NCBI GenBank assembly: GCA_017511265.1
Contig: JAFWKV010000017.1
Coordinates: forward strand, 7,312-71,311
Reading direction: 5' to 3'
DNA length: 64,000 bases
Source: Clostridia bacterium
Lineage (GTDB): Bacteria > Bacillota > Clostridia > TANB77 > CAG-508
This document shows, one piece after another, positions 37,298 through 61,928 of this stretch. The notes beneath the pieces were generated by a model, which was given only the letters and a program-made list of their open reading frames with translations, had not been told where the DNA came from and searched no databases. The translations under genes were made by a program, and so were the position numbers. Position 1 is the stretch's first letter. Each line of letters opens with the position of its first letter.

Positions 37298-37528
37298 ATA
37301 AAATACAATACATTTTTACATCGAATTCGTTTACATGAAGAATTTTTTGTCATTTTCATAGACAAATACATATATAAGAGAATAAAAAATTTGTATTTTA
37401 AAAACTTTTATGATACAATTTCTAATATAAGATGTAAAATTAAGTACAAAAGCAGACATTAAAAATTATCAATGTCTGCTTTTACATTCATATATGTACA
37501 ACAAAAGCAGAGGAGAAATTTTAAAACT

Positions 37529-38245
37529 ATGAAAAAAACAAGAAAAGTTATATTTATTATATTAGAGATTATATTTGTACTTTTGACTATATATTCGTTA
37601 TATAACATATATCAATGGTATACAGAAAACAGAAAAACAAGTGAAATCTTACAAAGCATTTCAAATAGCATTACTGTTGATGAAGATAACAAAACAGTTG
37701 TGGATTTTGATAGATTAGAAGAAAATAATTCTGATATAATTGCATACATAAAAGTAAATGGAACTGAAATAAATTATCCTGTGGTTAAAGCAGATGATAA
37801 TGATTATTATTTAAGTCATAGCTTAGACAAGACAGTAAATGGAGCTGGATGGATATTTGCTGATTATAGAAATAAGCTAGATGGAACTGATAAAAACTTA
37901 ATAATATATGGACATAACCGAAGAGATGGGAGCATGTTTGGCACATTAAAAAATATTTTAAACAAAGAATGGTATGAAGATAAAAATAATCTTAAAATTT
38001 CTTTACATACAGAAAATGAAGAATCAACTTATGAGGTATTTTCTGTGTATCAATTAGAAGAAGAAGATTATTATTTACAAACATCTTTTAAGGATAAAGA
38101 ATTTTTAAGCTTTGTAAATACACTACAAGGAAGAAGTATAAAAAATTTTAATGTAGAAGTATTAGATCATGACTCTATTCTTACTTTGTCTACTTGTGCT
38201 AATGATAATAGATACAGAGTCGTATTGCACGCAAAAAAAATATAA
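37529..38245 (+). CDS. srtB: Class B sortase
   Basis: N-terminal TM anchor, catalytic TLSTC motif and conserved His. Lies immediately upstream of the dockerin gene cluster. Confidence 0.7.
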   Translation: MKKTRKVIFIILEIIFVLLTIYSLYNIYQWYTENRKTSEILQSISNSITVDEDNKTVVDFDRLEENNSDIIAYIKVNGTEINYPVVKADDNDYYLSHSLDKTVNGAGWIFADYRNKLDGTDKNLIIYGHNRRDGSMFGTLKNILNKEWYEDKNNLKISLHTENEESTYEVFSVYQLEEEDYYLQTSFKDKEFLSFVNTLQGRSIKNFNVEVLDHDSILTLSTCANDNRYRVVLHAKKI

Positions 38246-38350: not shown

Positions 38351-41300
38351 ATGAAAAACATTATAAAACAATTACTTATAAGTCTGATAGCATTTATCTC
38401 CTTAGCTGAATGCATAGTACCGCTATCAAGCTATGCTACAGAAAACAACATAGGTACAGATGGACTAATCAGACTAAACATAAAAGGAACAGACAGAACA
38501 ATAACAAAAACAACAACAATAGAAGAAATAAAAAGCTGGTATACAGGTGAGCATATATTTGAAACACCATCATTATATGGTGGAAAAGCATATAGCTTTT
38601 ATGTTGGCAACAATTTTGATGACTATTTATACATTGAAACAATTGCAGATGGAACAATATTTAGCTATGGTTCAGTAGACCCTAGTTATAAAACAAATAC
38701 ATATAGCTTTGACGATAATTATCCATATGGAAAACTTACAGTACTTTCTGGATGCTTATTAAGTGATGAAGGTATTATAAAAGGTGGAGTTTATTACAAC
38801 AAAAATGCTTACTTAAAAGGAAAATTTAGTGACATAAAACAAGCATACAAAGATGCATTTGAAGAAGAATATTGCAAGGCAAATAATATAGAAAAATCAG
38901 AAATAGGTACAGAAAAAGACAAAGGCAGACAATCAAAAGCAATGCTAGATTTGTCCAAGCATGCAGTACTAATGTATAACGGGCTGATTAATTATTATGG
39001 CAGAACAGAAAGTTTTATGGAAACAGATAAAGATAAGAACGGAACAGATACATTCAAAACTTTTGAAGAATTCTTTGACATAAACAATCAATTGATTGAG
39101 AACGGTTCAAATTTATTTTCATATTTAATAAAAAAGGGATATGGCACAAGCTATTACTATTCATTAGGAACAAAAGCAGGTTGTGATTTATATGATAATT
39201 CGTATTCAATTTTTAGTCCGTTACAACTAGCCGGGATGGCTAAATTACAAAAAAATGCAGATCTAAGTACAAGAAACAATCCAGTTTGGACGTATAACTA
39301 TAAAAATAAAGTCTTGTTTGGAATATCTTTCAAAAAAGATTGTTTAAAAAGAGAAGATACTATACAATACACAGATGATGAACTAAATAAATTAAAACAG
39401 GCAAGAGGATACTATAAGGATGCAATTGCAGAATTAAATAAAGAAAAAGACATATATAAAATACAGCCAGTATTAACTCCACCAGAAAATATGCAAGCTG
39501 GGGAATTAGTGGATTCTAAAAAGAAAGGAATACTAAATTATTTCAATGCAATTCGTTCTGCAGCAGGTTTAGGAACGTTAAAAGGTGTGGAAAAAGGATA
39601 TGACACAGCACAGCATTTAACAACATTGCTTGCATATAGACTTAGGTATTTAGGACTTGGACCTACTCATTATCCTGAACAGCCAGAAGGAGTAGATAGA
39701 GATTACTGGAAAAAAGCAGTTCGGTTGGGAAACATCATGGGGAAATTCATTATCTTATGCCTCAATATCAGTAAATGAAGCAAATATGATGAGACATATA
39801 AACAACCTACTAAATGACAATGATGGTAGTCTTGACTTCGGACATAGACGTCATTTATTGCATCCTGGATATGCAGAGTTTGGATATGGAATTACTGAAT
39901 CTTTTGCAGAAGTTAATTTAAATGGATACCAAGATTATAAGTATATATTTAATGGATGGCCAGCTCCAAATGGAATTACATTTATGGAATCTTTAACTTA
40001 CAGAAAATTTATTTGGTCTGTAGCTTTCGATAGAAGCAAATACCTAGTTCAAAATTCTTGTACTGCTGAAATTAAATGCTTAAATACAGGTGAAAAATAT
40101 ATTTTTAATGAAGAAGAGGGAGAAGCTGATTCTAATCGAATTTATCAAAATATTGTAGAAGGTGAACAAATAGATTCTTTAATTAATAAAGTGGTTATTC
40201 GTGATAATAACATAGAACCTGTTGCAGGATATGCTTATGAAGTAACTATTCATGGACTTAAAAATGTAAGAACAGGAAAAATAGAAGATTATACATATAG
40301 AGTTAGATTTGACTATGCAGATGCAGCTTCTTATGGTAATTTACCAACAGGAATAACTATTGAACCTGATGCAAAACTTGAAAAGCTTTCAAATACAAAT
40401 AATACATATAGTGCAAAAGTAGGAGAAACATATAAATTAAATGCAATATTGGAAGGAATAGATGAAAACGTAATAGAAAGAAAAATCACTTGGGAGTCTT
40501 CAAACCCTGAATTAGTTACAGTTAAACAAGATGGAACTATAAAAATAAATAAAGATACCAATGACAAAAGTGCTACCATTACAGTATATCTTGATGCAAA
40601 TAAAAGCATACAAGAAGAAATAATAATAAAACCCCAAGATGTAACATTGATTTTAGATACTGAAAATTATACATTCACTAGTTTAGATGATACCTTACAA
40701 CTCTCACCACACCTAAGCAATAATGAAGAAACAACATTTACATATAAATCAAGTAATGAAAATATTTTAAAGGTAGATAAAAATGGAGTAGTAAAACCAA
40801 CAGCTCCTGGATTTGCTGATGTTTCTATAACAGATACAAAATATAATAAATCTGTTATATGCAGATTTTATGTTGCAACATTAGTAACATTATCAGATGG
40901 AAGCAAAGCCTATGTAGGTGATATGAATAGAGATGGAATGTTCAATTCAGTAGATAGTTCATTAATTATAGGTGCTTATAATAGAACTCCAACAGAAGAT
41001 GAAGCATTAATTGGTGATGTAAGTGGCGATGGATACTTAAATGCTGTTGACAGTAGTATCATTTTGAAATTGTTTAGTGAAGACGTTTTTTCACCAGGAA
41101 AATATTTCCCAATAACAAGTGTAAAACTTAGTAAAAATGAATTAACACTACAGCCAAATAAAAGTGAAACTTTAAAAGCAACAATAGAACCCAAAAATAC
41201 AACAGATAGTCCAAAAATAACATGGAAATCTAGTGATGAAGGCATAGCAAAAGTTGATGAAAATGGAAAAATTACCGCAATAGCAAAAGGATCTACAGAA

Positions 41301-41573
41301 ATAGTTGCAACATCTACAAATGGAAAAGAAGACAAATGCACTGTAACAGTTGCAGAAAACACAGATAAACCACAAACACTAAAAGGCGATGTAAATGGAA
41401 ACGGAATAGTAGAGTTAACAGATTATTCAATGATTTTAAAACATGTAAAAGGAATAAAATTACTTGAAGGAGAACAATTAAAAAGAGCAGATGTAAACGG
41501 TAATGGAACAATTGAACTTACAGACTACTCAATGGTATTAAAACATGTTAAAGGAATAAAATTATTATTTTAA
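38351..41573 (+). pseudogene. G1. Secreted protein: unknown N-domain + CAP + Big_2 repeats + internal dockerin + C-terminal dockerin. Frameshifted paralog of G3.
   Basis: ORFs 38351-39778 and 39786-41573 align end-to-end with the 1080-aa G3. Relative to the G3 segment AVRTGTSWGD, the run ggaaAcatca has an extra A, shifting the frame. Confidence 0.75.
41376..41570 (+). repeat. Dockerin-coding DNA repeat (G1 3' end)
   Basis: About 195-bp segment, roughly 85-95 % identical among eight genes. Encodes GDVNGNGIVELTDYSMILKHVKGIKLL twice. Confidence 0.7.
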
Positions 41574-41601: not shown

Positions 41602-44046
41602 ATGGAAAAAACGAGAATAAAGAAAATACTATCTACTGTACTAATTTCAATATTTTTATGTAGCAACATGGTTTTTGCAATAAATGAAAACAATAATAAC
41701 ATTGAATTGCCAAATGAAGCACCAGCTGTAAATTTTGAAGAAAATAATAAAATTGATGAAATTGAACAAAAAATAAAAATAGAAGATTTAGAAAAATCGA
41801 AGAAAAGTAATCAATACACTGAGAAAAAAATTACTCCCTCAAAATCAAAAAAATTTTTAAAATCTACTACAAAATCTACAGACAAATATGAAGGACATTT
41901 AGTTGAAAGCAAAAACGACATATCATCAACTTTTGTCGTAAGAGATGGAAAACATTATTCATATTTGATTGACGAAACTGTTTTGCCAGTAGTTTCTATT
42001 TATAGATATTGCTTTGAGACACAAGAAGAAAAAGAAATATATCATAATGAAGAATTAATGGTAAATGATTATTCATATTATATTCATAACAATGTATATT
42101 TAAAAGACAAAATGATATATTTTGCAGCCTTTTCAAAGAATGATGATAATCATATACACATAGTAGGCTATAATACACAAACTGAAACAATAAGCTATTC
42201 AAACATATTTAATATATCAAAAGATAGCTATGCTGAAAGCTTTTGTATAGATGATAGCGAAAATGCATACATTGTTATTAAAGGACAAACTGAAGGTACA
42301 TTTAGAATTAATTCATATGATAAAAATGGAACATTAATAAGTAAATTAAATAATGACATATTTGATAGTTTTTATTCTATAAAAATAACAAATTCAAATA
42401 ATAATATGATTTGGATAAAAGCATATGTTGAAAATGGAGATTATGTTAGCCCTAGAGATATTGCAATGAGAGTAAATAAGGGAGTTTTTATTACAGAAAA
42501 TTATGATATATTACGCAAGAAGGGAATAGAAATAAAATTTCTAAATGATGAGAAAAATATTGCATATGACAATTATGGAGAAATATTAAAATTCAATTAT
42601 ACTGATACAAGTGTAAGCTTTTCAGTGATAAACTATATTACAATCGATAAACAAAAAACAGTTACTGTTCCTTTCGAAAATACAGTAGAAGATTCATATT
42701 TATATGCAGGTGGAGAAAAGGGAACAATACTTAAATATAATTGGGATACATTTAAAATAGAACGATTTATTTCAATTGGAGAAAACAAAGATGTTATAGG
42801 AACATTTAAAGATGGAGACAAATTATATATTGAATATATGGATCCTAATACATATGATGTGTATGCTCTTATACTTGATTATGAAGATTTTATGACACCA
42901 CAGCAGACAATAGAACTAACAAATAATACGACTTTAAACAGAACAAAAGATGATATAAAGAGTAAGTACAATGAGCTTAAAATAGTAAAAGCAAATAATT
43001 ACAAAAATATTTACTCTGAAGCACCTTCAGTTACTGCACCTTATAAAGCAGGTGTACTTAATGAACAAGCTAAAAATGATACCTTAAATCAAATAAATTA
43101 TTTTAGATGGCTTGCTGGAGTAAATGAAGTAACTATAAATGAAAAGTACATGGAAAATGCACAGTGCGGAGCAGTTCTTTTGACAACAAGCAAAGAATTA
43201 ATGCACAATCCTGCTAAGCCAAGTGATATGACAGACGAATTTTATAATAAGGCATTAGGTGCTATATATGCAAAATTAGGAATACCTATGTCAGCAAATA
43301 TATCTAGATATTCGCCATTAGCTGAATCTATAAAAGGATATGTAGATGATACCAATAATATGGAACCAAATGTAGGACACAGATTAAGCATACTTGACTA
43401 TCAAGCTACAACTACATCTTTTGGATTTGCAGAAAAAAATGGAACAGTTGAAATGTTTACAGATTGGAGTAAAACACCAGACAATGCATTTTATGCATGG
43501 CCATCACCAGGAAACTTTCCAATAGAATCAATTGCAAGTCAAGCAATGTGGTCAATTAGATATGACCAAACGATATGCTTTGTGTCAGATAATGTTGATA
43601 TAAAATTAAAGGCTAATGGCAAAGAATACTCGTCTGCTAATAATGATTTTGAAGTATTCCACGATGAAGATTATAGTGCATTATATTACAAATTACCAAA
43701 TGAGTTACTAACTTATTTAACAGATGGAAAAAATACCATTCAAGCAAATAAAAAGGTTGAAGTTGAATTAAGTGGTCTAGCTGACCTTCAAGGAAATGCT
43801 TATATAATAAAATATCCAGTTGAATTTATGAGTGTAAAAGAAAAAGCATATCTTAAAGGTGATGTAAATGGGAACGGAATAGTTGAATTAACAGATTATT
43901 CAATGATATTAAAACATGTAAAAGGAATAAAATTACTTGAAGGAGAACAGAAACAAAGAGCAGATGTAAACGAAAATGGTAGAATTGAACTAACAGATTA
44001 CTCAATGGTATTAAAACATGTAAAAGGAATAAAATTATTATTTTAA
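41602..44046 (+). CDS. G2. Secreted protein with an unknown N-terminal region, a CAP/SCP-like domain and a C-terminal dockerin.
   Basis: Signal peptide. CAP-like NYFRWLAGVNEV...GHRLSIL. C-terminal GDVNGNGIVELTDYSMILKHVKGIKLLEGEQKQRADVNENGRIELTDYSMVLKHVKGIKLLF. Confidence 0.7.
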   Translation: MEKTRIKKILSTVLISIFLCSNMVFAINENNNNIELPNEAPAVNFEENNKIDEIEQKIKIEDLEKSKKSNQYTEKKITPSKSKKFLKSTTKSTDKYEGHLVESKNDISSTFVVRDGKHYSYLIDETVLPVVSIYRYCFETQEEKEIYHNEELMVNDYSYYIHNNVYLKDKMIYFAAFSKNDDNHIHIVGYNTQTETISYSNIFNISKDSYAESFCIDDSENAYIVIKGQTEGTFRINSYDKNGTLISKLNNDIFDSFYSIKITNSNNNMIWIKAYVENGDYVSPRDIAMRVNKGVFITENYDILRKKGIEIKFLNDEKNIAYDNYGEILKFNYTDTSVSFSVINYITIDKQKTVTVPFENTVEDSYLYAGGEKGTILKYNWDTFKIERFISIGENKDVIGTFKDGDKLYIEYMDPNTYDVYALILDYEDFMTPQQTIELTNNTTLNRTKDDIKSKYNELKIVKANNYKNIYSEAPSVTAPYKAGVLNEQAKNDTLNQINYFRWLAGVNEVTINEKYMENAQCGAVLLTTSKELMHNPAKPSDMTDEFYNKALGAIYAKLGIPMSANISRYSPLAESIKGYVDDTNNMEPNVGHRLSILDYQATTTSFGFAEKNGTVEMFTDWSKTPDNAFYAWPSPGNFPIESIASQAMWSIRYDQTICFVSDNVDIKLKANGKEYSSANNDFEVFHDEDYSALYYKLPNELLTYLTDGKNTIQANKKVEVELSGLADLQGNAYIIKYPVEFMSVKEKAYLKGDVNGNGIVELTDYSMILKHVKGIKLLEGEQKQRADVNENGRIELTDYSMVLKHVKGIKLLF
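43849..44043 (+). repeat. Dockerin-coding DNA repeat (G2 3' end)
   Basis: Same repeat family. Confidence 0.7.
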
Positions 44047-44050
44047 ATGA

Positions 44051-44083
44051 AGTTGTCAATGGGGACGGTTCTAATTGACAACT
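44051..44083. repeat. 33-bp palindromic element agttgtcaatggggacggttctaattgacaact between G2 and G3
   Basis: One mismatch relative to 23248-23280. Confidence 0.55.
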
Positions 44084-44101
44084 CATATGAAGGGATATAA
44101 A

Positions 44102-47100
44102 ATGAAAAACATATTAAAACATATTATATCAATACTAATATCAAACATAATACTAATACAAGCATTTATGCCTATAGTAAGTTATGCAGAAGATTCAAAA
44201 ATTGGGGCTGATGGTTTAATAATGCTAAATATTAAGGGTACAGACAGAACAGTAACTAAAACAACAACAATAGACGAGATAAAAAACTGGTATGCAGGAG
44301 AGCATATATTTGAAACACCATCATTATATGGTGGAAAAGCATATAGCTTTTATGTGGGCAGCAATTTTGACGACTATTTATACATCGAAACAATAGCAGA
44401 TGGAACAATATTTAGTTATGGTTCAGTGGACCCTAGCTATAAAACAAATACATATAGTTTTGGAGATGAATATCCATATACCGAAAGAAATGTTTTATAT
44501 GGATGCCTTTTGTCAGATGATGGTAAAATAATTGGTGGAGTTTATTATAATAAAAAAGCTTATTTAAATGGTAATACAAACAAAATAAAACAAGCATATA
44601 AAGATGCTTTTGAAGAAGAATATTGCAAAGAAAACAAAATAGAAAAATCAGAAATAGGGACAGAAAAAGATACAGGTAGACAACCAGAAATTATTCGTAA
44701 TTTATCTAAACATGCAATACTTATGTATAATGGATTAATACATTATTACAATCGTGATGAGAGCTTTATGCAAACTGATAGAGATGAAAATGGAGATACA
44801 TCTTTTACGACATTTGATGAATTTTTTGACATTAATAATCAATTTATTGAATTTAAAACAACAGCCTTTAACTATATTGATGATATGAATTATAATTCAG
44901 ATTATTATTATGTTTTAGGTGCAAAATCCGATTGCGAAATATATAATTCATATTATATTTTTAACCCATTACAAATGGCAGGAATGGCAAGAATACAAAA
45001 AAATACGAACTTAAGTAATAGAAATATTCCAGTATGGACATATAATTATAATGAAAAAAAATTACAAGGTATATCTTTTTGGAAAGATTGTTTTAAAAGG
45101 ATAGAAAAAGTTGAATTAACGCAAGAACAACAAGAAAGATATAAAAAATTAAGAGAATATTATGCTAAAGGTGAAGAAAAATTAAATAAAGAAGAAGGAA
45201 TGTATAAAACATTACCTTATTATGATGAGCCAGAAAAAATGGTCGCAGGTGAATTATTACAATCAAAAAAAGAAGGAATTAGAGATTACTTCAATGCAAT
45301 AAGAGCTGGATGTGGGCTAAAGCCAGTGCAAATAGGAGAACAAGGATTTGACATAGCACAACATATGACTACACTTTTACAATATAGATTTGAAAAGTTT
45401 GGAACAGGACTATCACATCATCCAGATAAGCCAGAAGGTGTTAGTCAAGAATACTTTGATATAGCGGTTAGAACTGGTACATCATGGGGAGATTCACTAT
45501 CGTTTATGGCAAGAACAGCGAATTCAGAAGGGATGAAACAACATATAAATAACATGTTGTTTGATGATAACAAAGATTATCAATATGGACATAGACACCA
45601 TTTATTAACATCATTTTATTCAGACTTTGGATATGGAATAACTGGATTTTTTGCATCTTTACAATTAAAAGGAGCAAATGGAGATTATGCTCCGTGTGTA
45701 GCATGGCCAGCTTGTAATGGGGTTACTATGATGGAATCTTTGGGACAAAGAAATTTCGCTTGGACAATTAAGTTTTATGAACTTTACTATGAAATATTAG
45801 ACTCGTGCAAAACAGAAATAAAAAATTTAAATACAGGCAAAGTATATACATTTGATAAGGAAGAAGGTGATGTTGATTCTAGGCGCTTATATCAAAATCT
45901 TACTTTTGATGATATAACATATTCGTTTGCAAATAAAATATTACTTAAAGAACCTGAAATAAAGCCCATGGCTGGAGAAGTATATGAAGTAACTGTAAAG
46001 GGTATAAAAAATGTAAAAACAGGAAATATTGAAGATTACACATACAGAACGGCGTTTGTGTACGGAGACTCAAGCAAAGATATAGAAACACCAAAATCTA
46101 TAGACATAGAAGTTGATGAAAATTTAGAAAAAACATCAGCTAATACTTATACAGGAAAAGTAGGCAATGAATATAAATTAAATGCAATAATTGACGACTT
46201 AAATGCTGTAGACAAAAAAATTACATGGTCATCTTCAAATAGTGAATATGTATCAGTTAATCAATATGGAAAAATAAAAATAAATAAAGAAGGTAAAGAT
46301 GCTATAATTACCGTTTCACTAGATGCAGATAAAAACATACAAAAAAAGATAAAAATAACACCAGAAGATTTTAAAATAATTATTGACAATGATAAAATAA
46401 AGAACAACACTTATACATTTACAAGTCTAAATGAAATATTACAATTGCCTGTATATTTAAGTAATGGGGAAGATACAACATTTACATATAGCTCAAGCAA
46501 TGAAAAAGCAATAAAGATAAATGAAAATGGAACTGCAACATCTGTAGCAGGAGGATTTGCTAATATAACAGTTACAGATACTAAATCAGGTAAAAGTGTA
46601 ATATGTGATTGCTATGTACAAGTTCCTGTGATATTAAGTGATGGAAGTAAAGCTTATGTTGGAGATATGAATAGAGATGGAATATTTAATGCATTAGATA
46701 CTGCTAATATTTTAGATTCTTATAAAAATAATCCGAGTACTGACCAAATATTAGTAGGAGATATAAATGGAGACGGCAATTTGACTTCACTAGATGCATC
46801 TAAAGCAATTGACTTATTTAAAGCAGGTATATTTTTACCTGGTAAATATTATCCTATAACAAAGGTAAGCTTAAATAAAACAGAATTAACACTACAGCCA
46901 AATAAAAATGAAACCTTAAAAGCAACAATAGAGCCAGAAAATACTACAGATAGTCCAAAACTAACATGGAAATCTGGTGACGAAAGCATAGCAAAAGTTG
47001 ATGAAACCGGAAAAGTTACCGCAATAGCAAAAGGCTCTACAGAAATAACTGCAACATCTGCAAATGGAAAAGAAGACAAATGCAATATAACAGTTATAGA

Positions 47101-47317
47101 AAATATAGATAAACCACAAAAACTAAAAGGCGATGTAAATGGAAATGGAATAGTAGAGTTAACAGATTATTCAATGATTTTAAAACATGTAAAAGGAATT
47201 AAATTACTTGAAGGAGAGCAAAAAGAAAGAGCAGATGTAAACGAAAATGGTACAATTGAACTAACTGATTACTCAATGGTACTAAAACACGTAAAAGGAA
47301 TTAAATTATTATTTTAG
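44102..47317 (+). CDS. G3. Secreted protein: N-domain + CAP-like + Big_2 x3 + internal dockerin + C-terminal dockerin.
   Basis: Signal peptide. YGHRHHLL CAP motif. Big_2 (ITWSSSNSEYVSVNQYGKIKI; KLTWKSGDESIAKVDETGKVTAIAKGSTEITA). Internal GDMNRDGIFNALD...GDINGDGNLTSLD. C-terminal dockerin pair. Confidence 0.75.
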   Translation: MKNILKHIISILISNIILIQAFMPIVSYAEDSKIGADGLIMLNIKGTDRTVTKTTTIDEIKNWYAGEHIFETPSLYGGKAYSFYVGSNFDDYLYIETIADGTIFSYGSVDPSYKTNTYSFGDEYPYTERNVLYGCLLSDDGKIIGGVYYNKKAYLNGNTNKIKQAYKDAFEEEYCKENKIEKSEIGTEKDTGRQPEIIRNLSKHAILMYNGLIHYYNRDESFMQTDRDENGDTSFTTFDEFFDINNQFIEFKTTAFNYIDDMNYNSDYYYVLGAKSDCEIYNSYYIFNPLQMAGMARIQKNTNLSNRNIPVWTYNYNEKKLQGISFWKDCFKRIEKVELTQEQQERYKKLREYYAKGEEKLNKEEGMYKTLPYYDEPEKMVAGELLQSKKEGIRDYFNAIRAGCGLKPVQIGEQGFDIAQHMTTLLQYRFEKFGTGLSHHPDKPEGVSQEYFDIAVRTGTSWGDSLSFMARTANSEGMKQHINNMLFDDNKDYQYGHRHHLLTSFYSDFGYGITGFFASLQLKGANGDYAPCVAWPACNGVTMMESLGQRNFAWTIKFYELYYEILDSCKTEIKNLNTGKVYTFDKEEGDVDSRRLYQNLTFDDITYSFANKILLKEPEIKPMAGEVYEVTVKGIKNVKTGNIEDYTYRTAFVYGDSSKDIETPKSIDIEVDENLEKTSANTYTGKVGNEYKLNAIIDDLNAVDKKITWSSSNSEYVSVNQYGKIKINKEGKDAIITVSLDADKNIQKKIKITPEDFKIIIDNDKIKNNTYTFTSLNEILQLPVYLSNGEDTTFTYSSSNEKAIKINENGTATSVAGGFANITVTDTKSGKSVICDCYVQVPVILSDGSKAYVGDMNRDGIFNALDTANILDSYKNNPSTDQILVGDINGDGNLTSLDASKAIDLFKAGIFLPGKYYPITKVSLNKTELTLQPNKNETLKATIEPENTTDSPKLTWKSGDESIAKVDETGKVTAIAKGSTEITATSANGKEDKCNITVIENIDKPQKLKGDVNGNGIVELTDYSMILKHVKGIKLLEGEQKERADVNENGTIELTDYSMVLKHVKGIKLLF
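47120..47314 (+). repeat. Dockerin-coding DNA repeat (G3 3' end)
   Basis: Same repeat family. Confidence 0.7.
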
Positions 47318-47336
47318 ATAATTATTGGAGAAGAAT

Positions 47337-49511
47337 ATGGAAAAAATGAAAATTTTAAAAAATACATTAGCTATTTTATTTGTTTTAACAATAATAATAA
47401 ATTCAATAAATATACCTAAAACAATGGCATATACAGATCTTTTTATACAAGAAACAAGTGATAGACCCAATATTATAGAAGGGTCAGTTAGACTTAACCC
47501 TGAAACAAAAAGAGTTGCAGACTATGCTGGAAAAGATGCCTATTGTACTGGTGATGAAATAAAATTAGATGTATATATCGAGACACCTTATATAAATTTG
47601 AACACATTATCAGTAGGTGTAGGACTAAGCACAAATGCATTTGAATTTGTTGGTTATGAATTAGGAGAAGAAATACCAGAGGAATATAAAAATAAATTTT
47701 CAAAAAGAACAACTTATAATCAATTTATAGATTATTCCTCTGGAAAAGCTGATTACTCCCCAGATGGAGTTATACTTGAATATGAAGACTCAACAAATCG
47801 CATAAATAATTCTGGAGAATTCAAGGTTTTTACAGCAACATTCAAAGTAAAAAAAGCATTTATGGATTTAAAAACATTTAAAGACTATATAAAAAATGTT
47901 AAACCATGTACTACATATTCAAATTATAGAAATGATGAAAATAGACAGACTTGCTTTCCAAGAATGCAATTTAATAGTATCTATGACTTTTATGTAATGT
48001 CAGAGCCGAATCAAGTTTTAATTTATGATACAACAGCAAAAATGAAAATAAATGAATACAAAAAATTTAGTGTAAAAGTAAACCCAGAAACTGCATATCA
48101 AGGAGTTAAATGGAGTTCAAACAATCCAGATGTAGTCAGTGTTAGTGATGATGGAGTAGTCATTGCAAAAAAAGAAGGCAAAGCAACAATAACTGCAAAA
48201 GCAACTGCTAAAGAGAGTGTAAAATGCAATTACAATATTACAGTGAATGGTTTGTCTGATAATGTTTTGATTGAAAAAATAACAATTGATAATAAAGAAA
48301 AAATAAACAATTTATATCCTGGAAAATATGCAAATGTATTAGCTACTATTTTACCAGAAAATACTAATCAAGACAAAACAATTACATATTCTAGTTCAAA
48401 TCCAGAAGTAGCTACCATAGATAGTGATGGTACGATAAGAGCAATATATCCGGGAACAACAAAAATAACTGTAAAAACAACAAATGCAAAAACAGACGAA
48501 TATACAATAACTGTAAAGAATCCAGTTTCAAAAGTTAAGATAAAAAATAAAACAGCAGGAATTTATTTATATGATTATATGGGATATCCATTAGATATTG
48601 AAACAGAACCTGAAGGATATGAAGAATTAGTAAAACTTAGCTCATCAAATGAAAACGAAGTTATAGTAGATAATACATATAAAAGTATAAGAGCATTAGA
48701 TGTAGGAGACGTAAAAATAACAGCTCAAGTAGGAGACGTAAAAGATAGCTTTATGGTAGGAGCATTTACTAAAGAAATGCCGGCAACAAGTGTTAAAATA
48801 AATAATAAAATAGAAGAAATGGAATTAAAAGAGGAGATACAACTAGATGTTACGATAGAGCCTAACCCAGAAACTAATCCTGTAAGTAAACTAGCATTTA
48901 AAGTTGATGATACATCAATTGCAGATATTAGTACATTTGGAATTTTAAAAGCAAAAAAGGGAGGAAAAGTTAAAGTTACAGCATATTCAGCAACTACAGA
49001 GGATTCATTTATAGTAAATATTAATGCCGAAAGTGGTATAGAAGACTTTGAAATAATAGATTTTAATGGCAAAGTAGAAGAATATGCATCATCGTGTTAT
49101 GCAGTTAAAATAACACCTGAAAATGCTGATGGAAAAAATTTTTGGGAAGCAAGTAGTTCAAATCTGGATATACTTGATGCGTATAAATGGAATGATGATG
49201 AAATTGTAATCGATGGTATTTCTCCAGGAGAAGCAGATATAATAATAACTGCAGGAAGCGACTATAAAAAGATAATTCATGTAAAAGTTTTTGAATACGG
49301 AAGCCAAGATAATTACTTAAAAGGTGATGTAAATGGCAATGGAATAGTAGAACTAACAGATTATTCAATGATATTAAAACATGTAAAAGGAATAAAATTA
49401 CTTGAAGGAGAACAAAAAGAAAGAGCAGATGTAAATGGCAATGGCACAATAGAACTAACAGATTACTCAATGGTATTAAAACATGTAAAGGGAATTAAAT
49501 TATTGAATTAA
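47337..49511 (+). CDS. G4. Secreted protein: putative cohesin-like N-terminal module + multiple Big_2 + C-terminal dockerin. Candidate adaptor scaffoldin.
   Basis: After the signal peptide, a roughly 125-aa segment (GDEIKLDVYIETPYINLNTLSVGVGLSTNAFEFVGYELGEEI...GEFKVFTATFKVKKA) matches the cohesin beta-sandwich pattern, as I recall it from CipA-type cohesins (GDTV.V.V...YD...LE.V...G....DGVFA.I.FKVK). At least four Big_2 repeats follow, then the dockerin. Confidence 0.6.
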   Translation: MEKMKILKNTLAILFVLTIIINSINIPKTMAYTDLFIQETSDRPNIIEGSVRLNPETKRVADYAGKDAYCTGDEIKLDVYIETPYINLNTLSVGVGLSTNAFEFVGYELGEEIPEEYKNKFSKRTTYNQFIDYSSGKADYSPDGVILEYEDSTNRINNSGEFKVFTATFKVKKAFMDLKTFKDYIKNVKPCTTYSNYRNDENRQTCFPRMQFNSIYDFYVMSEPNQVLIYDTTAKMKINEYKKFSVKVNPETAYQGVKWSSNNPDVVSVSDDGVVIAKKEGKATITAKATAKESVKCNYNITVNGLSDNVLIEKITIDNKEKINNLYPGKYANVLATILPENTNQDKTITYSSSNPEVATIDSDGTIRAIYPGTTKITVKTTNAKTDEYTITVKNPVSKVKIKNKTAGIYLYDYMGYPLDIETEPEGYEELVKLSSSNENEVIVDNTYKSIRALDVGDVKITAQVGDVKDSFMVGAFTKEMPATSVKINNKIEEMELKEEIQLDVTIEPNPETNPVSKLAFKVDDTSIADISTFGILKAKKGGKVKVTAYSATTEDSFIVNINAESGIEDFEIIDFNGKVEEYASSCYAVKITPENADGKNFWEASSSNLDILDAYKWNDDEIVIDGISPGEADIIITAGSDYKKIIHVKVFEYGSQDNYLKGDVNGNGIVELTDYSMILKHVKGIKLLEGEQKERADVNGNGTIELTDYSMVLKHVKGIKLLN
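49314..49508 (+). repeat. Dockerin-coding DNA repeat (G4 3' end)
   Basis: Same repeat family. Confidence 0.7.
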
Positions 49512-49528: not shown

Positions 49529-51715
49529 ATGATAAAAGTAAAAAAGATACTATCTATACTTATGATAATTTCTATATTCATTTCTTTTGTATTACCAATT
49601 AATATAGCTAATGCAACATATACAATTAAACAATTGAGAAATATGTACCCTAGTAACATGCAATGGAATGATAAATACAAAGATGGATCATCTGAATGTG
49701 CTGGATTTGCATATTTAATTTATGATAGTTATTATGGAATAGGACCTAAAGAATATGGTAATAAAATAACAGATGTAGAACAAGCACAGCCTGGGGATAT
49801 TGTAAGATACAATGGCCATTCTGTATTTATTTTAACAAGAAATGGCGAGTCAACAACAGTAGTAGAATGTAACTATGATCGTCAAAATCATGTTAGATGG
49901 GATCAACCTAAAAATATGAGCGAATATAGAAATAGTTTTGAATATATTTATAAAGCACCATATATTTTAGAAACACCAGCGCCAGTAGTAGGAGTCCCTA
50001 CAAATGTGACTGTAGATACATCTAAATGGGTGCAAGCCAGTTGGAGTAAACCAAGTAACTGTTATGGATACTTATTGCAAGTTTATAATCAGGAGGGAAC
50101 TAAAGTCAAAGAAATAAAAATAAATAAAGCAGATACCACAGAACAAGCCATAGCAGGGTTAGAAACAGGTAATTATACACTTAGAGTATATGCTAAGGGA
50201 TTAGCTGGAGACTATTCTTCAGAATACGGAAGTGCAAAATTTTCATGCAAAAAGGAAGCAACTACATGTACTTTAAAAACAAAAAGTAATGTAATTGAAG
50301 TAGGACAAACCTACGAATATGAAGTAGTATTTCCAGAAGGGACTACAGCATATACAACACTTTTTATAGATTCGGAAGGAGATAAAAGTGTTTTAGAGAT
50401 TGAAAACCAAATGACAGTTAGAGGATTAAAAGAAGGAAATACAAAAGTATTTTTTATGATGAGAAGTAGTAATACAACTAGAACAGAGTCTTTTCAAATA
50501 AGTGTAATGAATCCATTAAGATTTAAAGATAACGAAGCAAAAACACTGAAAATAGGAGATAAATATCAATTAGAATTAAAATCAAAATCAGAAATTGCAA
50601 ATTCTGTTAAGTGGAACAGTTCGAATACAAGTGTAGCAACGGTTGACGAGCATGGTAATATAACAGCCTTAAAGGCAGGGAAAACGACAATAACTGCAAG
50701 TCAGAGTATGTGGACTACTGACCATAATGCATCTGGAACAACCCAAGATAAATGTACCATAACAGTAATAGACCCTAATATATATGCGACCAGTATAAGT
50801 TTAAACAAAACAGAAATGACATTAGAGAATATTGGAGATACAGATATTTTAAAAGCAACTATTTTACCAGAGAATACTACAAACAAAACAGTAACTTGGA
50901 CATCAAGTAATACAAATGTAGCAACAGTAGATGAAAACGGTAAAGTAAAAGTAAAAGGAGAAGGTAAGACGAAAATTACTGCAAAAACTTCAAATGGAAA
51001 GAGCACATATTGCATGGTTACTGTTCCAAAGCAAATTAAATGTAGTCTAAATTATACAGATTATACTTTTTCAAATTTGAACGAAACGATTCAAATACAA
51101 GCAAAATTAACAGATGGGTATAGCTCAACATTTAGTTACAAATCCACAAGGGACAGCATTTTAAAAGTTGATAAAAATGGAAAAGTAACTCCTGTAAAGG
51201 GTGGATTTGCAGATATTGTTGTAACAGACAATGTTTATGGAAAAAAGGCAACACTAAGTTGCTATGTACAAGTACCAGTAGTACTAAGTGATGGAAGTAA
51301 AGCGTATGTAGGAGATTTAAACAAAGATGGTTACTTTAATGCAACTGATGCTGCAATTATTTTAGATGGCTATAAAAATGGAGCTACATCAGATGATGTT
51401 TTGTTAGGAGACATAAATGGTGATGGATTTTTAAATGCTTCTGATAGTGCAATGTTACTAGATATATATAAGATGGGTCTTTTTTCGCCGGGAAAATATG
51501 ATAAAATAACAGAAAAAGTTGTAAAAGGTGACATTAATGGCAACGAAATAGTAGAACTAACAGACTATTCAATGATTTTAAAACATGTAAAGGGAATTAA
51601 ATTACTTGAAGGAGAACAAAAAGAAAGAGCAGATGTAAATGGCAATGGCACAATAGAACTAACAGATTATTCAATGGTACTAAAACATGTAAAAGGAATT
51701 AAATTATTGAATTAA
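49529..51715 (+). CDS. G5. Secreted papain-like (CHAP/NlpC-P60-type) peptidase + FN3-like + Big_2 + internal dockerin + C-terminal dockerin.
   Basis: SSECAGFAYLIY...GDIVRYNGHSVFIL...VVECNYD (Cys/His). Internal GDLNKDGYFNATD...GDINGDGFLNASD. C-terminal dockerin. Confidence 0.7.
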   Translation: MIKVKKILSILMIISIFISFVLPINIANATYTIKQLRNMYPSNMQWNDKYKDGSSECAGFAYLIYDSYYGIGPKEYGNKITDVEQAQPGDIVRYNGHSVFILTRNGESTTVVECNYDRQNHVRWDQPKNMSEYRNSFEYIYKAPYILETPAPVVGVPTNVTVDTSKWVQASWSKPSNCYGYLLQVYNQEGTKVKEIKINKADTTEQAIAGLETGNYTLRVYAKGLAGDYSSEYGSAKFSCKKEATTCTLKTKSNVIEVGQTYEYEVVFPEGTTAYTTLFIDSEGDKSVLEIENQMTVRGLKEGNTKVFFMMRSSNTTRTESFQISVMNPLRFKDNEAKTLKIGDKYQLELKSKSEIANSVKWNSSNTSVATVDEHGNITALKAGKTTITASQSMWTTDHNASGTTQDKCTITVIDPNIYATSISLNKTEMTLENIGDTDILKATILPENTTNKTVTWTSSNTNVATVDENGKVKVKGEGKTKITAKTSNGKSTYCMVTVPKQIKCSLNYTDYTFSNLNETIQIQAKLTDGYSSTFSYKSTRDSILKVDKNGKVTPVKGGFADIVVTDNVYGKKATLSCYVQVPVVLSDGSKAYVGDLNKDGYFNATDAAIILDGYKNGATSDDVLLGDINGDGFLNASDSAMLLDIYKMGLFSPGKYDKITEKVVKGDINGNEIVELTDYSMILKHVKGIKLLEGEQKERADVNGNGTIELTDYSMVLKHVKGIKLLN
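51518..51712 (+). repeat. Dockerin-coding DNA repeat (G5 3' end)
   Basis: Same repeat family. Confidence 0.7.
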
Positions 51716-51758: not shown

Positions 51759-51842
51759 TATGAAAAATTTTAGTATATAGATTGTAATTAAAAAAAGTTT
51801 ATGATAAAATTTGACCATAAAATAAAAGGAGGAAAATTTGTA

Positions 51843-54599
51843 ATGAAAAAATTTATTTCATTTATAATCATAGCAATATTATTGATACAAATGTATTTAC
51901 CAGTTTTATCATTTGCTACAAATGACAAAGTAGCATTAGACAATCACATAATAAAAGCTCTAAATGAAGGTAATTATGACAAAGATGAAGATGGAGAATT
52001 TACAATAGAGGAATTGTCAAAAGTATATTGGCTATATATAGACTGTGACGATGAATTTGTTGATTTAACAGGAATTGAAAACATGACCAATCTTTCAACA
52101 ATTGGATTTAATAGTGCAACATCTGATATGGACTTTACAGTATTAAGCCAATTACCATTAGACACATTATTTTTATCAGGATTTTTAAATGATATATCAT
52201 TTTTACAAAATCTTAATAGCTTGTCAGAGCTTTCAATATCATTTTACAATGAAGATGTACCATTAGACATACTTTCAACACTAACAACATTACAGAGTTT
52301 AAGAATAAGTTGCAATGGCGACATAGACATAGATAAATTAAACAACTTAACAGAATTAAAATATCTTACAATACAAGTTAGAGATGGAGTGGAAGTAACA
52401 CCAGAACTTATAGAAAATATAAATAGCTTAAAAGTTAAGAATTTTGCTTTAGAGGGAAAAGTTATTTACAATGTAGGAAATCTTGTATCAAATAAGCAAG
52501 CAGAAATCCCATTTGACAATATTCCATTAATAAAAGAAATGCAAAATCCAGGTAGTAAATTATACTATGAAGATTTTACATACAGCAAAAAAGATGATTT
52601 AATTACAGTAGATAATGCAAATAAAAAATTTCTTTTAAACCTAAAAAATGATGATACTAGAAGTGCAACAATTGAATTTGATAATGATATTACACTTGAA
52701 ATACAATGGAGTACTGCTGAAGATGATGAAGAACCAGAATTAAGCAACAAAATTAAAAATGCCTTACAAAAAGTAGGTGCAGACAAAGATAATAATGGTA
52801 AATATACAATAAGTGAATTAAAAAATGTACATTCTTTGGATTTAAACTTCTCATACAATGACAAATTTGACTTAACAGGAATTGAAAAGATAACAAATTT
52901 AGAGGGACTAACTATTACTGCAACATGTCCAGAAGTCGATTTATCACTATTAAAAGAGCTTCCAAATTTAACATATTTAAGTTTAAATGGAAATTTTAAT
53001 AGCATGGATTCTTTGGAGGGAGTAACAAATTTAGTTTCTTTAAGAATAAGTACATATAATAAAGATTTTTACTTTAATTTTGGGATAATAAACAGAATGA
53101 CAAATCTAGAAGCACTAGATATATACGGAATAAATGAAAATAATTTAAATAACATTAACAAATTAACAAATTTAAATAAATTAAAACGCCTAACTTTAAA
53201 CTTTGGAACAGAACCAAATGAATTAAAATTACCTAATTTAACAAATTTAGAAGAATTAAATTTGTCTTATATTAAAACAGATAATTTAAAAGATTTAGAA
53301 AAATTAACAAAATTAAGAAAATTATATATTCAACCAGTATTAAATAAAGATAATAGTGATGTTGACACAGAAGCTATAAAAAAATTAACAAATCTTGAAC
53401 AGCTAAAAATTACTTTAACAGATGATCCAAGTTGGGTTAATAGCTTATCAAAACTGAAACAAGTAGTTCTTGTAGCAAACACTACAGAAGATAACTATGA
53501 AAACCCACAAAAGATCCAACAAATGGTAAATGGAATTAATACTATTAAGGCAAATGTAAAATTAATAGGTCAATTTAACTTTAATATCGGGAAACTTACA
53601 GTTGGTGAAGAAAGAGATATAAATATAGGTGACAATATTTTAGTGAGAGAATTTAAAGACCCAAATAGCAAATTATATAGCCCTAATATCAATATAAATG
53701 TAGGTCATAACAATTTTATAAATGAATGGAATTATAATGAGAAAACTAAAATTGCACATTTAAAAGTTACTGAATTTGGTAATGATTATGCTTATGCTAG
53801 TGCATCAGAATATGAGGAAGATGGAATGTCGGTTAGCATAAATTTTAAATGGAAAGGCATCATAGATGATGACAAAGAAACAGAAATACCTATTAATGAT
53901 GAAAACTTAAAAAAAGCATTATTAGAAAAATATGATATAGATGGAAATAAAAAAATCACAAAACACGATTTATTAAATATTGACGAATTAGACCTAGACA
54001 ATAAAGGAATAGAAGATATTACAATTTTAGCATCTATGCCAAATCTTGAAAGAATTATTCTTCCAAATAATAAAATAAAAAATATTAAGGTAATTGAAGA
54101 ACTATCAAACAGCAGAAAAATACAATATATAAATTTAAAAAATAACGAAATTGAAGATATACAGCAAATAAAAGATGCAAATTTTGAAATTATTAATTTA
54201 AGTGAAAATTATATTGACTTTTCTGAAAATTCAGCAAATAGAAAAATAATAGTAGATTTTGGAATTGAAAGATGGGGAAATGAATATGATTTTTATTCAC
54301 AATATATGCCACTAAATCAAACAAGAGAAGAATTTATAAATGAAAATATAGATAATTATTTTAAAACCTATGCAGCAAATCAAAAAACGAAAACAACATA
54401 TAAAAAAGGCGACGTAAATGGAAACGGAATAGTAGAACTAACAGACTATTCAATGATTTTAAAACATGTAAAAGGAATAAAATTACTTGAAGGAGAGCAA
54501 AAAGAAAGAGCAGATGTAAATGGCAATGGCACAATAGAACTAACAGACTACTCAATGGTACTAAAGCATGTAAAAGGAATTAAACTATTAGATGAATAA
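51843..54599 (+). CDS. G6. Secreted leucine-rich-repeat (internalin-like) protein with C-terminal dockerin.
   Basis: Many LxxLxxLxLxxN repeats (LTNLEELNLSYIKTDNLKDLEKLTKLRKLYIQ) and a C-terminal dockerin pair. Confidence 0.7.
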   Translation: MKKFISFIIIAILLIQMYLPVLSFATNDKVALDNHIIKALNEGNYDKDEDGEFTIEELSKVYWLYIDCDDEFVDLTGIENMTNLSTIGFNSATSDMDFTVLSQLPLDTLFLSGFLNDISFLQNLNSLSELSISFYNEDVPLDILSTLTTLQSLRISCNGDIDIDKLNNLTELKYLTIQVRDGVEVTPELIENINSLKVKNFALEGKVIYNVGNLVSNKQAEIPFDNIPLIKEMQNPGSKLYYEDFTYSKKDDLITVDNANKKFLLNLKNDDTRSATIEFDNDITLEIQWSTAEDDEEPELSNKIKNALQKVGADKDNNGKYTISELKNVHSLDLNFSYNDKFDLTGIEKITNLEGLTITATCPEVDLSLLKELPNLTYLSLNGNFNSMDSLEGVTNLVSLRISTYNKDFYFNFGIINRMTNLEALDIYGINENNLNNINKLTNLNKLKRLTLNFGTEPNELKLPNLTNLEELNLSYIKTDNLKDLEKLTKLRKLYIQPVLNKDNSDVDTEAIKKLTNLEQLKITLTDDPSWVNSLSKLKQVVLVANTTEDNYENPQKIQQMVNGINTIKANVKLIGQFNFNIGKLTVGEERDINIGDNILVREFKDPNSKLYSPNININVGHNNFINEWNYNEKTKIAHLKVTEFGNDYAYASASEYEEDGMSVSINFKWKGIIDDDKETEIPINDENLKKALLEKYDIDGNKKITKHDLLNIDELDLDNKGIEDITILASMPNLERIILPNNKIKNIKVIEELSNSRKIQYINLKNNEIEDIQQIKDANFEIINLSENYIDFSENSANRKIIVDFGIERWGNEYDFYSQYMPLNQTREEFINENIDNYFKTYAANQKTKTTYKKGDVNGNGIVELTDYSMILKHVKGIKLLEGEQKERADVNGNGTIELTDYSMVLKHVKGIKLLDE
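54402..54596 (+). repeat. Dockerin-coding DNA repeat (G6 3' end)
   Basis: Same repeat family. Confidence 0.7.
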
Positions 54600-54632: not shown

Positions 54633-56315
54633 ATGAAAAATAAAAATAGTATTTTAATAAAATTTATATTTACTTTTGTATTAATAGCAACAATAACTCA
54701 AACAAACTTTATCTATGCAACTGCTTTAGAAGATGAAGAAGTATATGAAAGTTTACTTACAACAAATGAGCAAGAAGAGACAGACACAGGAAACCTAACT
54801 TATGCCTCTGGAGTTACAGATGAAATGTGCAAGCCAGAATATTGGGCAAGCAAAATAAAAGATGCAAGTAAGGTATTAATGACAAAATCAGAAATATCAA
54901 AGCTAAACCAAGATATTATAGACGGAGCTGGAACAAATGTATTTGATTTAACTAAAATTAACGAAACAAAAACTCCATCTGAAAGAGCGCAAATATTAGC
55001 AAACAGTGAAGACATTCCAATAAGAAATCTCTATATAGATGGTACATTAATAGATAATAATACATATTTTACAAAACTAAAAAATGCAATGATAGAAACT
55101 GGGTTTGATGGTGATGAAACAGTTCAAAAGTATGCAGTAGCTGTAAAAAGAGCAGATGTAAGAGTATGGCCAACAAATGATGTAATAGGCTATAGTGAAA
55201 CAGATCCAGATGACGAAATTGAAAATTCAATATTAAATGTAAATGAACCATTTGTAATAAGAGGAAAATGTGAAGTAGATGGCAAAACATTTTATTGGGG
55301 AAATTCAAATGTTTGCCCAGGATGGGTAGATGCAGAAAATTTAGCAATATGTGAAAGCAAAGAAGAATGGATAGATGCATGGCAAGTAGATGTATCAGCA
55401 AAAGACTTTCTTGTTGTAACACAAGATAAAATTACGCTAGAGCCATCTCTTTCAGTGCCAGAAACATCTGAAATAAAATTGATGATAGGAACAACTTTAA
55501 AATTAGTTTCAAAAAGTGATTTGCCTAAAAACATAGGTGAAAGAGGAACTTGGAATAATTATGTTGTATATTTACCAACAAGAGATGAAGATGGAAACTA
55601 TGTTAAACAATATGCATTAATATCACAGCACTATGATGTAAGTATTGGATTTTTACCAATGACACAAGAAAACATATTAAAAGTTGCATTTTCATGTTTA
55701 GGAAACAGATATGGCTGGGGTGGAATGTTAGGTGCAATGGATTGCTCATTATATAGTAGAAGTATTTATGAATGCTTTGGCTTAGAACTACCTAGAAATA
55801 CTACTTGGCAGATGAAGGTACCAGGAAAAGTTACAGATGTTTCAGAGAAGAATGATGAAGAAAAAGAAGCATTTTTAGAAAAACAAGCAGTAGGAGCAAT
55901 TCTCTTCTTCCCAGGACATGCAATGGTCTATACTGGCAATGAAAATAACACAAGCTATACAATAAGCGCAACAGGATCACTTTCTGATAGTATTGGTGAG
56001 CTAAATGTACAAAGTATGTATTCAGTAATTTTAAATCCATTAACAACCAGAAGAAGAAATGGAAGAACATGGCTAAATAATTTAACTTATGTATTGAGCT
56101 TTGGTGAAAACAATGAAGAGCTAATAGGTGACGTAAATGGAAACGGAATAGTAGAACTAACAGACTATTCAATGATATTAAAACATGTAAAAGGAATAAA
56201 ATTACTTGAAGGAGAACAATTAGAAAGAGCTGATGTAAACCAAAATGGAAACATAGATTTAACAGATTATTCAATGGTATTAAAACATGTAAAGGGAATT
56301 AAATTATTGAATTAA
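54633..56315 (+). CDS. G7. Secreted SH3b + NlpC/P60 (YkfC-like gamma-D-Glu-diamino acid endopeptidase type) with C-terminal dockerin.
   Basis: NRYGWGGMLGAMDCSLYSRSIY...PGHAMVY (Cys-His NlpC/P60). Dockerin at the C-terminus. Confidence 0.75.
   Translation: MKNKNSILIKFIFTFVLIATITQTNFIYATALEDEEVYESLLTTNEQEETDTGNLTYASGVTDEMCKPEYWASKIKDASKVLMTKSEISKLNQDIIDGAGTNVFDLTKINETKTPSERAQILANSEDIPIRNLYIDGTLIDNNTYFTKLKNAMIETGFDGDETVQKYAVAVKRADVRVWPTNDVIGYSETDPDDEIENSILNVNEPFVIRGKCEVDGKTFYWGNSNVCPGWVDAENLAICESKEEWIDAWQVDVSAKDFLVVTQDKITLEPSLSVPETSEIKLMIGTTLKLVSKSDLPKNIGERGTWNNYVVYLPTRDEDGNYVKQYALISQHYDVSIGFLPMTQENILKVAFSCLGNRYGWGGMLGAMDCSLYSRSIYECFGLELPRNTTWQMKVPGKVTDVSEKNDEEKEAFLEKQAVGAILFFPGHAMVYTGNENNTSYTISATGSLSDSIGELNVQSMYSVILNPLTTRRRNGRTWLNNLTYVLSFGENNEELIGDVNGNGIVELTDYSMILKHVKGIKLLEGEQLERADVNQNGNIDLTDYSMVLKHVKGIKLLN
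56118..56312 (+). repeat. Dockerin-coding DNA repeat (G7 3' end)
   Basis: Same repeat family. Confidence 0.7.
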
Positions 56316-61872: not shown

Positions 61873-61928
61873 TGAAAGAAGAAATTACTTTTGATATAAT
61901 ATAGATGTTTAATTAAGGAGGTGTTTAA

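Follow-up and report, generated by a model that had tools for sequence, protein, structure and literature searches.

A second, divergent type of dockerin in a sortase-linked cohesin–dockerin gene cluster of an uncultured Clostridia bacterium

A stretch of 64,000 nucleotides from a Clostridia bacterium (contig JAFWKV010000017.1 of assembly GCA_017511265.1; the whole of this stretch is called the window below, and positions refer to it) carries in its 3′ third, from 37.4 to 64 kb, a same-strand array of nine secreted-protein genes, G1 to G9. All nine proteins end in one common dockerin, which we refer to as DocA. Four of them, G1, G3, G5 and G9, carry in addition an internal pair of Ca2+-loop/helix repeats, here named DocB. 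The best overall explanation of this arrangement, one to which we would give about an even chance on the sequences and the predicted structures, is that DocB is a functional second type of dockerin: DocA would anchor the proteins on the cohesin of G10, the gene that follows G9, and DocB would bind another partner. That DocB is a genuine dockerin fold is, taken by itself, very probable from its sequence and from structure prediction.

The internal Ca-loop pairs of the four proteins had been noticed in an initial annotation made from the nucleotide sequence, and all four of the peptides given there are present in the translated genes, with Pfam, the PDB and an AlphaFold2 (AF2) model in agreement on what they are. 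In each copy a segment of about 22 residues occurs twice, both times as an EF-hand-like Ca2+ loop with a helix after it. When taken alone and compared with Pfam Dockerin_1 (PF00404, curated cut-off 22.9 bits), the segments of G1, G3 and G5 score 30.6, 28.1 and 31.2 bits, all above the cut-off, and that of G9 falls just below it with 20.6 bits; the G9 copy reaches 128–129 bits against a DocB profile, one that includes the G9 copy itself. A profile of the internal segments, searched against the PDB sequences, has dockerins for all of its top matches. The residues at Ca positions 1, 3, 5, 9 and 12 are Asp, Asn, Ser or Thr in all eight DocB loops of the window, and the ligands are likewise intact in 16 of 16 loops when four copies from related loci are counted with those of G1, G3, G5 and G9. 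The G1 copy had been placed at 40910–41075, which is right at its end and one base early at its start: the reading frame from 40910 was ruled out by the stops in its translation, and the true frame starts at 40911. The proteins with two dockerins and their modules are the following.

38351..41573, + strand: G1, a paralogue of G3 in split open reading frames (ORFs); CAP-like region, Big_2, DocB, Big_2, DocA.
40911..41075, + strand: G1 DocB; Dockerin_1 with E 3.9e-7; translation YVGDMNRDGMFNSVDSSLIIGAYNRTPTEDEALIGDVSGDGYLNAVDSSIILKLF.
41382..41570, + strand: G1 DocA; Pfam Dockerin_1 at residues 533–588, loops at amino acids (aa) 535 and 569.
44075..47317, + strand: G3 (1080 aa); signal peptide, CAP-like region, Big_2, DocB, Big_2, DocA; Dockerin_1 in two stretches.
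46658..46825, + strand: G3 DocB.
47126..47314, + strand: G3 DocA; Pfam residues 1018–1073.
49529..51715, + strand: G5 (728 aa); signal peptide, N-terminal domain, Big_2 repeats, DocB, 17-residue linker, DocA.
51308..51478, + strand: G5 DocB; three-helix pattern in the AF2 model.
51524..51712, + strand: G5 DocA; the tandem with DocB aligns end to end with PDB 8X39.
61929..64000, running off the window end, + strand: G9; signal peptide, Big_2-like domain, N-proximal DocB, CAP-like region, Ig-like domains, C-terminal DocA.
62292..62453, + strand: G9 DocB, N-proximal; Dockerin_1 with E 5e-4.

The G5 copy, which is the sole DocB copy that was modelled, was predicted with AF2 as part of aa 500–728. 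The model has a mean pLDDT (predicted local distance difference test) of 85.2 and a three-helix pattern in both DocB and DocA. The DocB helices lie at model residues 105–117, 121–127 and 137–149, where blocks of 10 residues have mean pLDDT values of 82–90; the predicted template modelling score (pTM) of 0.62 makes the arrangement of the domains relative to each other uncertain. In a Foldseek search with this model the top match was 8x39_A (E 1.7e-7, 135 columns, 30% identity), and the single dockerin 4uyp_B was matched with a TM score of 0.77. The internal segment is thus predicted to fold as a dockerin, the point on which the initial annotation had made its reading depend.

DocB is directly preceded by an Ig-like domain of the Big_2 type in every copy, and it sits between the conserved flanks LSDGSKAYVGD and F-PGKY-PI. 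A Big_2 domain ending in CYVQVPV had been described ahead of all four copies; this ending is found in G3 and G5 only, its place being taken by FYVATLV in G1 and by IYVATPV in G9. The spacing between the two dockerins is variable: they stand in tandem in G5, with a linker of 17 residues, are separated by one Big_2 domain in G1 and G3, and lie about 970 residues apart in G9. The internal dockerins of the window are 45–54% identical to each other in pairwise comparison.

DocA (KGDVNGNGIVELTDYSMILKHVKGIKLL...) is a different module in several respects. It forms the near-identical C-terminus of G1–G8, also ends G9, and scores 50.8 bits against Dockerin_1; the mean pairwise identity of the paralogues is 93% for the protein and 88% for the DNA. 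That the internal dockerins are clearly different in sequence from this C-terminal type, as had been claimed, is borne out by their profile, which gives only 12–22 bits over the C-terminal modules. A comparison of recognition positions 10, 11, 17, 18 and 22, which had been suggested along with the claim, points the same way: DocA reads LTLKG/LTLKG, the same in both repeats, and DocA and DocB differ at all of these canonical positions. The two DocA repeats are identical at 18 of 22 positions, and the C-terminal types of other species at 18–21 of 22. The repeats of DocB are dissimilar, with 8–12 of 22 positions identical, and their recognition residues (in G1, for example, SVIGR/AVLKE) vary between the paralogues. 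Identical recognition residues in both repeats of a dockerin are a pattern associated with a dual binding mode, and dissimilar repeats in a dockerin that follows an Ig-like domain are a feature associated with a single binding mode. Different specificities of the two dockerins are thus indirectly supported by sequence, because the DocA repeats are symmetric and those of DocB asymmetric, and because the cohesin of G10 has diverged together with the type of C-terminal dockerin, while DocB has stayed 87–90% identical between orthologues.

The uniformity of DocA extends to the DNA. Its coding segments (41382–61648; nine copies, the last of them outside the window) have a DNA identity of 81–93%, and the bodies of the genes are far more divergent; this uniformity speaks for homogenisation or strong constraint, and the repeats could give rise to recombination or misassembly. 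G1 and G3, which are 60% identical overall, differ much in their uniformity from one part to another: the Big_2–DocA cassette is 80–97% identical, which is unusually uniform, and DocB is 40–50% identical, having diverged as much as the protein body in general. The first DocA loop of G5 (51530–51547) reads DINGNE, with a Glu at loop position 6, where Gly is otherwise invariant.

The cohesin to which DocA may be assigned lies just outside the window. To read beyond the window end we used the metagenome scaffold L002 (67.8 kb; ENA ERZ28654795, XIEF21-1_SAMN15830017 scaffold_375), which has no mismatches with the window over 17,668 shared bases. G9 is complete on this scaffold (L002:15597–19214, 1205 aa), with DocA as its C-terminus beyond the window end, Dockerin_1 in two stretches, and a CAP match of 21.0 bits at a cut-off of 21.1. 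The next gene after it is G10 (L002:19297–22140, window-equivalent 65629–68472). The N-terminus of G10 matches Pfam Cohesin PF00963 with 35.2 bits (cut-off 24.1) over 1–138 of the 139 profile positions; against the PDB sequences it gives only a marginal cohesin match (E 0.18). From its N-terminus on, G10 is made up of a signal peptide, the cohesin, three Big_2 domains, Cys-rich RYYR-CCHC repeats, an SPKTG motif, a transmembrane segment and the sequence RRKRNK, and it scores 19.0 with the LPXTG_anchor model (cut-off 15.9). Pfam detects no other cohesin in the locus or beside it. At the other edge of the cluster, ahead of G1, lies the gene of a class B sortase. This gene and the remaining genes of the array, all of them with DocA as their only dockerin where they have one, are as follows.

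37472..38245, + strand: class B sortase, at the 5′ edge of the cluster; Pfam Sortase 58.8 bits; TIGR03064 sortase_srtB 188.6 bits (cut-off 153.75).
41602..44046, + strand: G2, secreted, DocA only; Dockerin_1 at residues 752–807; no strong DocB match.
47325..49511, + strand: G4, candidate monovalent adaptor; signal peptide, cohesin-like N-terminal domain, Big_2 repeats, DocA; Pfam Big_2 and Dockerin_1.
47436..47849, + strand: N-terminal all-beta domain of G4; predicted cohesin-like fold; candidate DocB partner.
51801..54599, + strand: G6, leucine-rich-repeat (LRR) protein, DocA only; Pfam LRR_14 and Dockerin_1.
54633..56315, + strand: G7, NlpC/P60 protein, DocA only; Pfam NLPC_P60 and Dockerin_1.
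56333..61651, + strand: G8, large leucine-rich-repeat protein, DocA only.

With a cohesin protein that carries a sorting signal and with a class B sortase at hand, the cluster has the make-up of a sortase-anchored cohesin–dockerin display system. It does not have that of a cellulosome: no glycoside hydrolase or carbohydrate-binding module (CBM) was found by Pfam in G1–G10, and the only cohesin proteins present have a single cohesin. The cargo domains of G1–G9 are Big_2, weak CAP-like, NlpC/P60 and LRR, and are not carbohydrate-active; no peptidase domain was detected in any of the proteins with two dockerins. As judged from its gene content, the cluster is a non-cellulosomal cohesin–dockerin system for display on the cell surface. 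Within it, DocA probably binds the G10 cohesin, and the main argument for this pairing is that the cohesin has changed along with the C-terminal dockerin type in a related locus, L004.

Related sequences are few, the lineage being very sparsely sampled in sequence collections, and those found in the searched collections amount to a handful (L003, L004, L005, L006, P0001 and P0002). A homologue search with the DocB sequence gave only two short dockerins; one with the Big_2–DocB–Big_2 cassette gave 11 weak or partial matches, and among these P0001 and P0002 alone were informative. Scans of metagenome contigs with DocB alignments gave no match, and a search of genome contigs gave one locus, L003. 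Few as they are, these relatives offer a natural set of comparisons. L004 is a syntenic locus from another sample, with seven dockerin proteins that all carry a different C-terminal dockerin (GDVNGDGKVNAGDYVAILNYVRKKI); it has orthologues of G10 and G4 and, within its 22 kb, no DocB. Its G10 orthologue is 30–40% identical to G10 in the cohesin and 70–88% in most of the remainder. The N-terminal domain of its G4 orthologue is 60–78% identical to that of G4, and does not track the C-terminal dockerin. The dockerin of the G4 orthologue lies in another frame after a stop codon, both in L004 (11946–12155) and in L005 (2423–2632), and the frameshift looks real since it occurs in two independent samples.

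The other relatives bear on DocB itself. L006 has an orthologue of G1 in which the Big_2–DocB region is the best-conserved stretch, 87–90% identical to G1, the other aligned segments being 57–87% identical; its C-terminal dockerin is a third type, with three repeats (GDVNGDGKVNGKDWIRLYEHI). L003, from a metagenome-assembled genome of an uncultured Clostridia bacterium in GTDB, encodes two proteins (L003:5376–11413), one of them a homologue of G5, with the Big_2–DocB–Big_2 cassette. In both of these proteins six ChW cell-wall-binding repeats follow the cassette, in place of a dockerin. The two L003 copies of DocB are near-identical to one another, and G5 and its L003 homologue agree best over Big_2–DocB. 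A fourth type of C-terminal dockerin stands after the same cassette in the fragment P0002. Such swaps at the C-terminus suggest that this position is an exchangeable cell-surface anchor and that DocB is a conserved, separate element. With its intact Ca loops and its high conservation between orthologues, DocB is, on this sequence evidence, maintained by selection.

We lean, from the sequences, towards a partner for DocB that is other than the partner of DocA. A candidate within the locus is the N-terminal domain of G4, which, like the G10 cohesin, had not been identified in the initial annotation. Its predicted model is of low confidence, and the best structural matches of this model are cohesins; from the model, the domain is a probable cohesin. 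When profiles of the G4 N-terminus and the G10 cohesin were compared, no similarity was seen, and homologues of this domain are scarce, one having been found by word search and one by exhaustive HMMER search over 1.8 billion representatives. It has been described that divergent cohesins can evade sequence profiles, and that a monovalent adaptor scaffoldin combines one cohesin module with a dockerin in the same protein (PMC11557425). G4 would be of this make-up, with one cohesin-like module, as seen in the low-confidence model only, and a C-terminal DocA. As the partner of DocB, the modelled domain is a tentative proposal and less likely right than wrong. That the two form a second, orthogonal cohesin–dockerin pair in one operon-sized locus is, in our judgement, unlikely.

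The mechanism that we propose runs as follows. The class B sortase would attach G10 to the cell wall via the SPKTG signal, and the near-invariant, symmetric DocA of the nine cargo proteins would dock onto the G10 cohesin. DocB, with its two dissimilar repeats, would bind a different, evolutionarily stable partner, for which the locus offers the divergent cohesin-like domain of G4 as perhaps the best candidate; with a DocA at its own C-terminus, G4 would serve as a monovalent adaptor. The DocB proteins could in this way have two points of attachment, or form cross-links with other displayed proteins. Every binding step here is one that we infer from the observed sequences and predicted fold of the two dockerins, from the cohesin and anchor signal of G10, from the class of the sortase and from the evolutionary patterns. 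If G4 and DocB do pair, the dual-dockerin proteins would be seated on G10 via DocA and simultaneously tied to G4 via DocB. The outcome would be a surface layer, cross-linked and non-enzymatic, that consists of CAP-like proteins and a candidate Ig-domain adaptor, beside the NlpC/P60 and LRR proteins that have DocA only, and it would provide a function for double dockerins, in which the second module has lacked a clear partner until now.

Several observations weigh against this proposal. Confidence in the G4 model is low. In the 22 kb of L004 there is a G4 orthologue but no DocB protein, and L003 has DocB proteins and no visible G4. The four DocB copies vary at the recognition positions, which is awkward if all of them bind one G4 domain. 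The published precedents are discouraging as well: the two-dockerin ORFs of Pseudobacteroides cellulosolvens bound none of the tested cohesins (PMC5590126), and the second dockerin of a published double dockerin is called “functionally ambiguous” in PMC12484212. Finally, G1, the carrier of the DocB copy first flagged, is a split gene. A comparison of frames with G3 shows that a 1-nt indel, in a run of GGG near 39716–39722, breaks it into ORFs at 38351–39778 and 39786–41573; the flagged DocB belongs to the 3′ ORF, which has no signal peptide. The G1 orthologue in L006 is also split, at another site (L006:403–451); the splits could reflect recurrent pseudogenisation of the G1 paralogue or assembly errors.

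DocB might instead be a structural, Ca2+-stabilised module that has no cohesin partner, either a rigid spacer or one that packs on the Ig-like domain or, in G5, on DocA. We regard this as rather unlikely. It would suit the place of DocB, always directly after an Ig-like domain and with conserved flanks, as well as the variation of the recognition positions between paralogues and the divergence of DocB between G1 and G3, which is no different from the background of the protein body. It also has parallels in the P. cellulosolvens ORFs that bound nothing (PMC5590126) and in a double dockerin of Clostridium thermocellum, whose modules, according to PMC12484212, pack against each other and one of which is without a clear partner. 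Against a structural role stands the conservation of 87–90% between orthologues, which includes surface-exposed helix positions; the DocB copies of L003 are near-identical, as expected for a common ligand, and the same locus holds a candidate second cohesin.

A joint use of the G10 cohesin by DocA and DocB, which would give two attachment points (avidity) or a choice of orientations at the cell surface, is improbable in our view. In its favour, both modules belong to Dockerin_1, and G10 is the only cohesin that profiles detect in or next to the locus; but the two dockerins differ at all recognition positions and in the symmetry of their repeats. The G10 cohesin, moreover, is 30–40% identical between species, where DocB is 87–90% identical despite the different C-terminal dockerins, and the DocB proteins of L003 are anchored by ChW repeats, with no visible DocA-type system. 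That DocB is a decaying relic, a former C-terminal dockerin buried by a recombined Big_2–DocA cassette, is very improbable because its Ca ligands are intact in eight of eight copies and it is among the best-conserved segments between orthologues, to which one may add its confidently predicted fold and the N-proximal DocB of G9, not explained by simple C-terminal accretion; this is so even though the uniform C-terminal cassette suggests recent spread or homogenisation among the paralogues, C-terminal modules have been swapped between lineages, and the genes of both G1 and its orthologue in L006 are split.

Upstream of the cluster lie genes for housekeeping and sporulation (PNPase, formate-THF ligase, germination protease, YtxC, an AddA-like helicase and NrdD), and the G+C content is about 28%; the DNA is from the chromosome of a spore-forming, low-GC Firmicute. 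No tRNA or Rfam match was found in the window, and scans of the region for promoters and terminators gave sites at chance level only. A good match to a sigma-70-like site (TTGAAA, 17-nt spacer, TATAAT, upstream TG) is seen at 61872–61900, within the 277 bp that lie between G8 and G9. Single EF-hand-like loops (e.g., DKDEDGEFTIEEL and DKNGDGKYTKGEL) precede each LRR block in G6 and G8; four loops of G8 fit the search pattern, and a fifth, at aa 134, deviates from it.

Taken as a whole, the initial annotation of two dockerin types in one polypeptide is supported in part: the second sequence type is there and the arrangement is a rare one, but it is not unprecedented. Proteins with double or multiple dockerins are described as rare in PMC12484212. 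What this locus has to offer is its compactness, with two dockerin types, one clear and one candidate cohesin and a sortase within about 31 kb, together with natural comparisons in relatives that have swapped the C-terminal anchor, for other dockerins or for ChW repeats, and kept DocB. The locus also extends cohesin–dockerin assembly to cargo that is not directed at carbohydrates (CAP-like, NlpC/P60 and LRR proteins), in an uncultured lineage of spore-forming gut Clostridia.

The closest known system is the S8 protease Clo1313_0689 of C. thermocellum, whose double dockerin, with two different modules in one polypeptide, has been solved as PDB 8X39/8X3A (Chen et al. 2024 Protein Sci 33:e4937, via PMC12484212). 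Its first module is stated in PMC12484212 to prefer the cell-bound ScaD cohesin. DocB, linker and DocA of G5 align with the 8X39 module in one stretch (E 5.6e-11, query 10–140 vs chain 4–133), DocA being closest to the second dockerin (59.2 bits, vs 29.7 for the next dockerin) and DocB to the first. Double dockerins of the Clo1313_0689 type reportedly have a stable dockerin–dockerin interface and an intramolecular clasp in the first dockerin. The cargo of Clo1313_0689 is a peptidase and not a glycoside hydrolase; in our locus an NlpC/P60 domain is found in G7, which has DocA only. Clo1313_0689 is a strict tandem in a cellulosome-forming organism, whereas here a direct tandem with a short linker occurs in G5 only, the locus has no glycoside hydrolase or CBM, and the second module is common to all proteins of the cluster.

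The two-dockerin ORFs of P. cellulosolvens (WP_036940956.1 and WP_036945116.1; PMC5590126) are alike in having two dockerin modules per protein, and one of them is fused to a putative peptidase, the other having dockerins only. The organism is, however, cellulosomal, and the two dockerins of the peptidase-fused ORF are described as similar, whereas those described here are of clearly different types. G10, for its part, resembles cSca5 of the Limousia mucinolysome (PMC12997984) and the Ruminococcus anchors of the R. flavefaciens ScaE type (PMC11557425) in its N-terminal cohesin and C-terminal sorting signal; these are single-cohesin anchoring scaffoldins, and the cargo here differs in being CAP-like, NlpC/P60 and LRR proteins in place of carbohydrate-active enzymes. 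DocB and the Ig-like domain directly before it are reminiscent of the X-module–dockerin dyads of type II systems and of the R. flavefaciens X-Doc, in which such a domain likewise precedes a dockerin with dissimilar repeats, except that the preceding domain here is Big_2-like rather than a recognised X module. The double-dockerin arrangement of this locus is therefore of an already known, rare kind, with two clearly different types in a new setting; unlike the known double dockerins, it is found in a non-cellulosomal context, with variable spacing and with both candidate partners encoded in the same locus.

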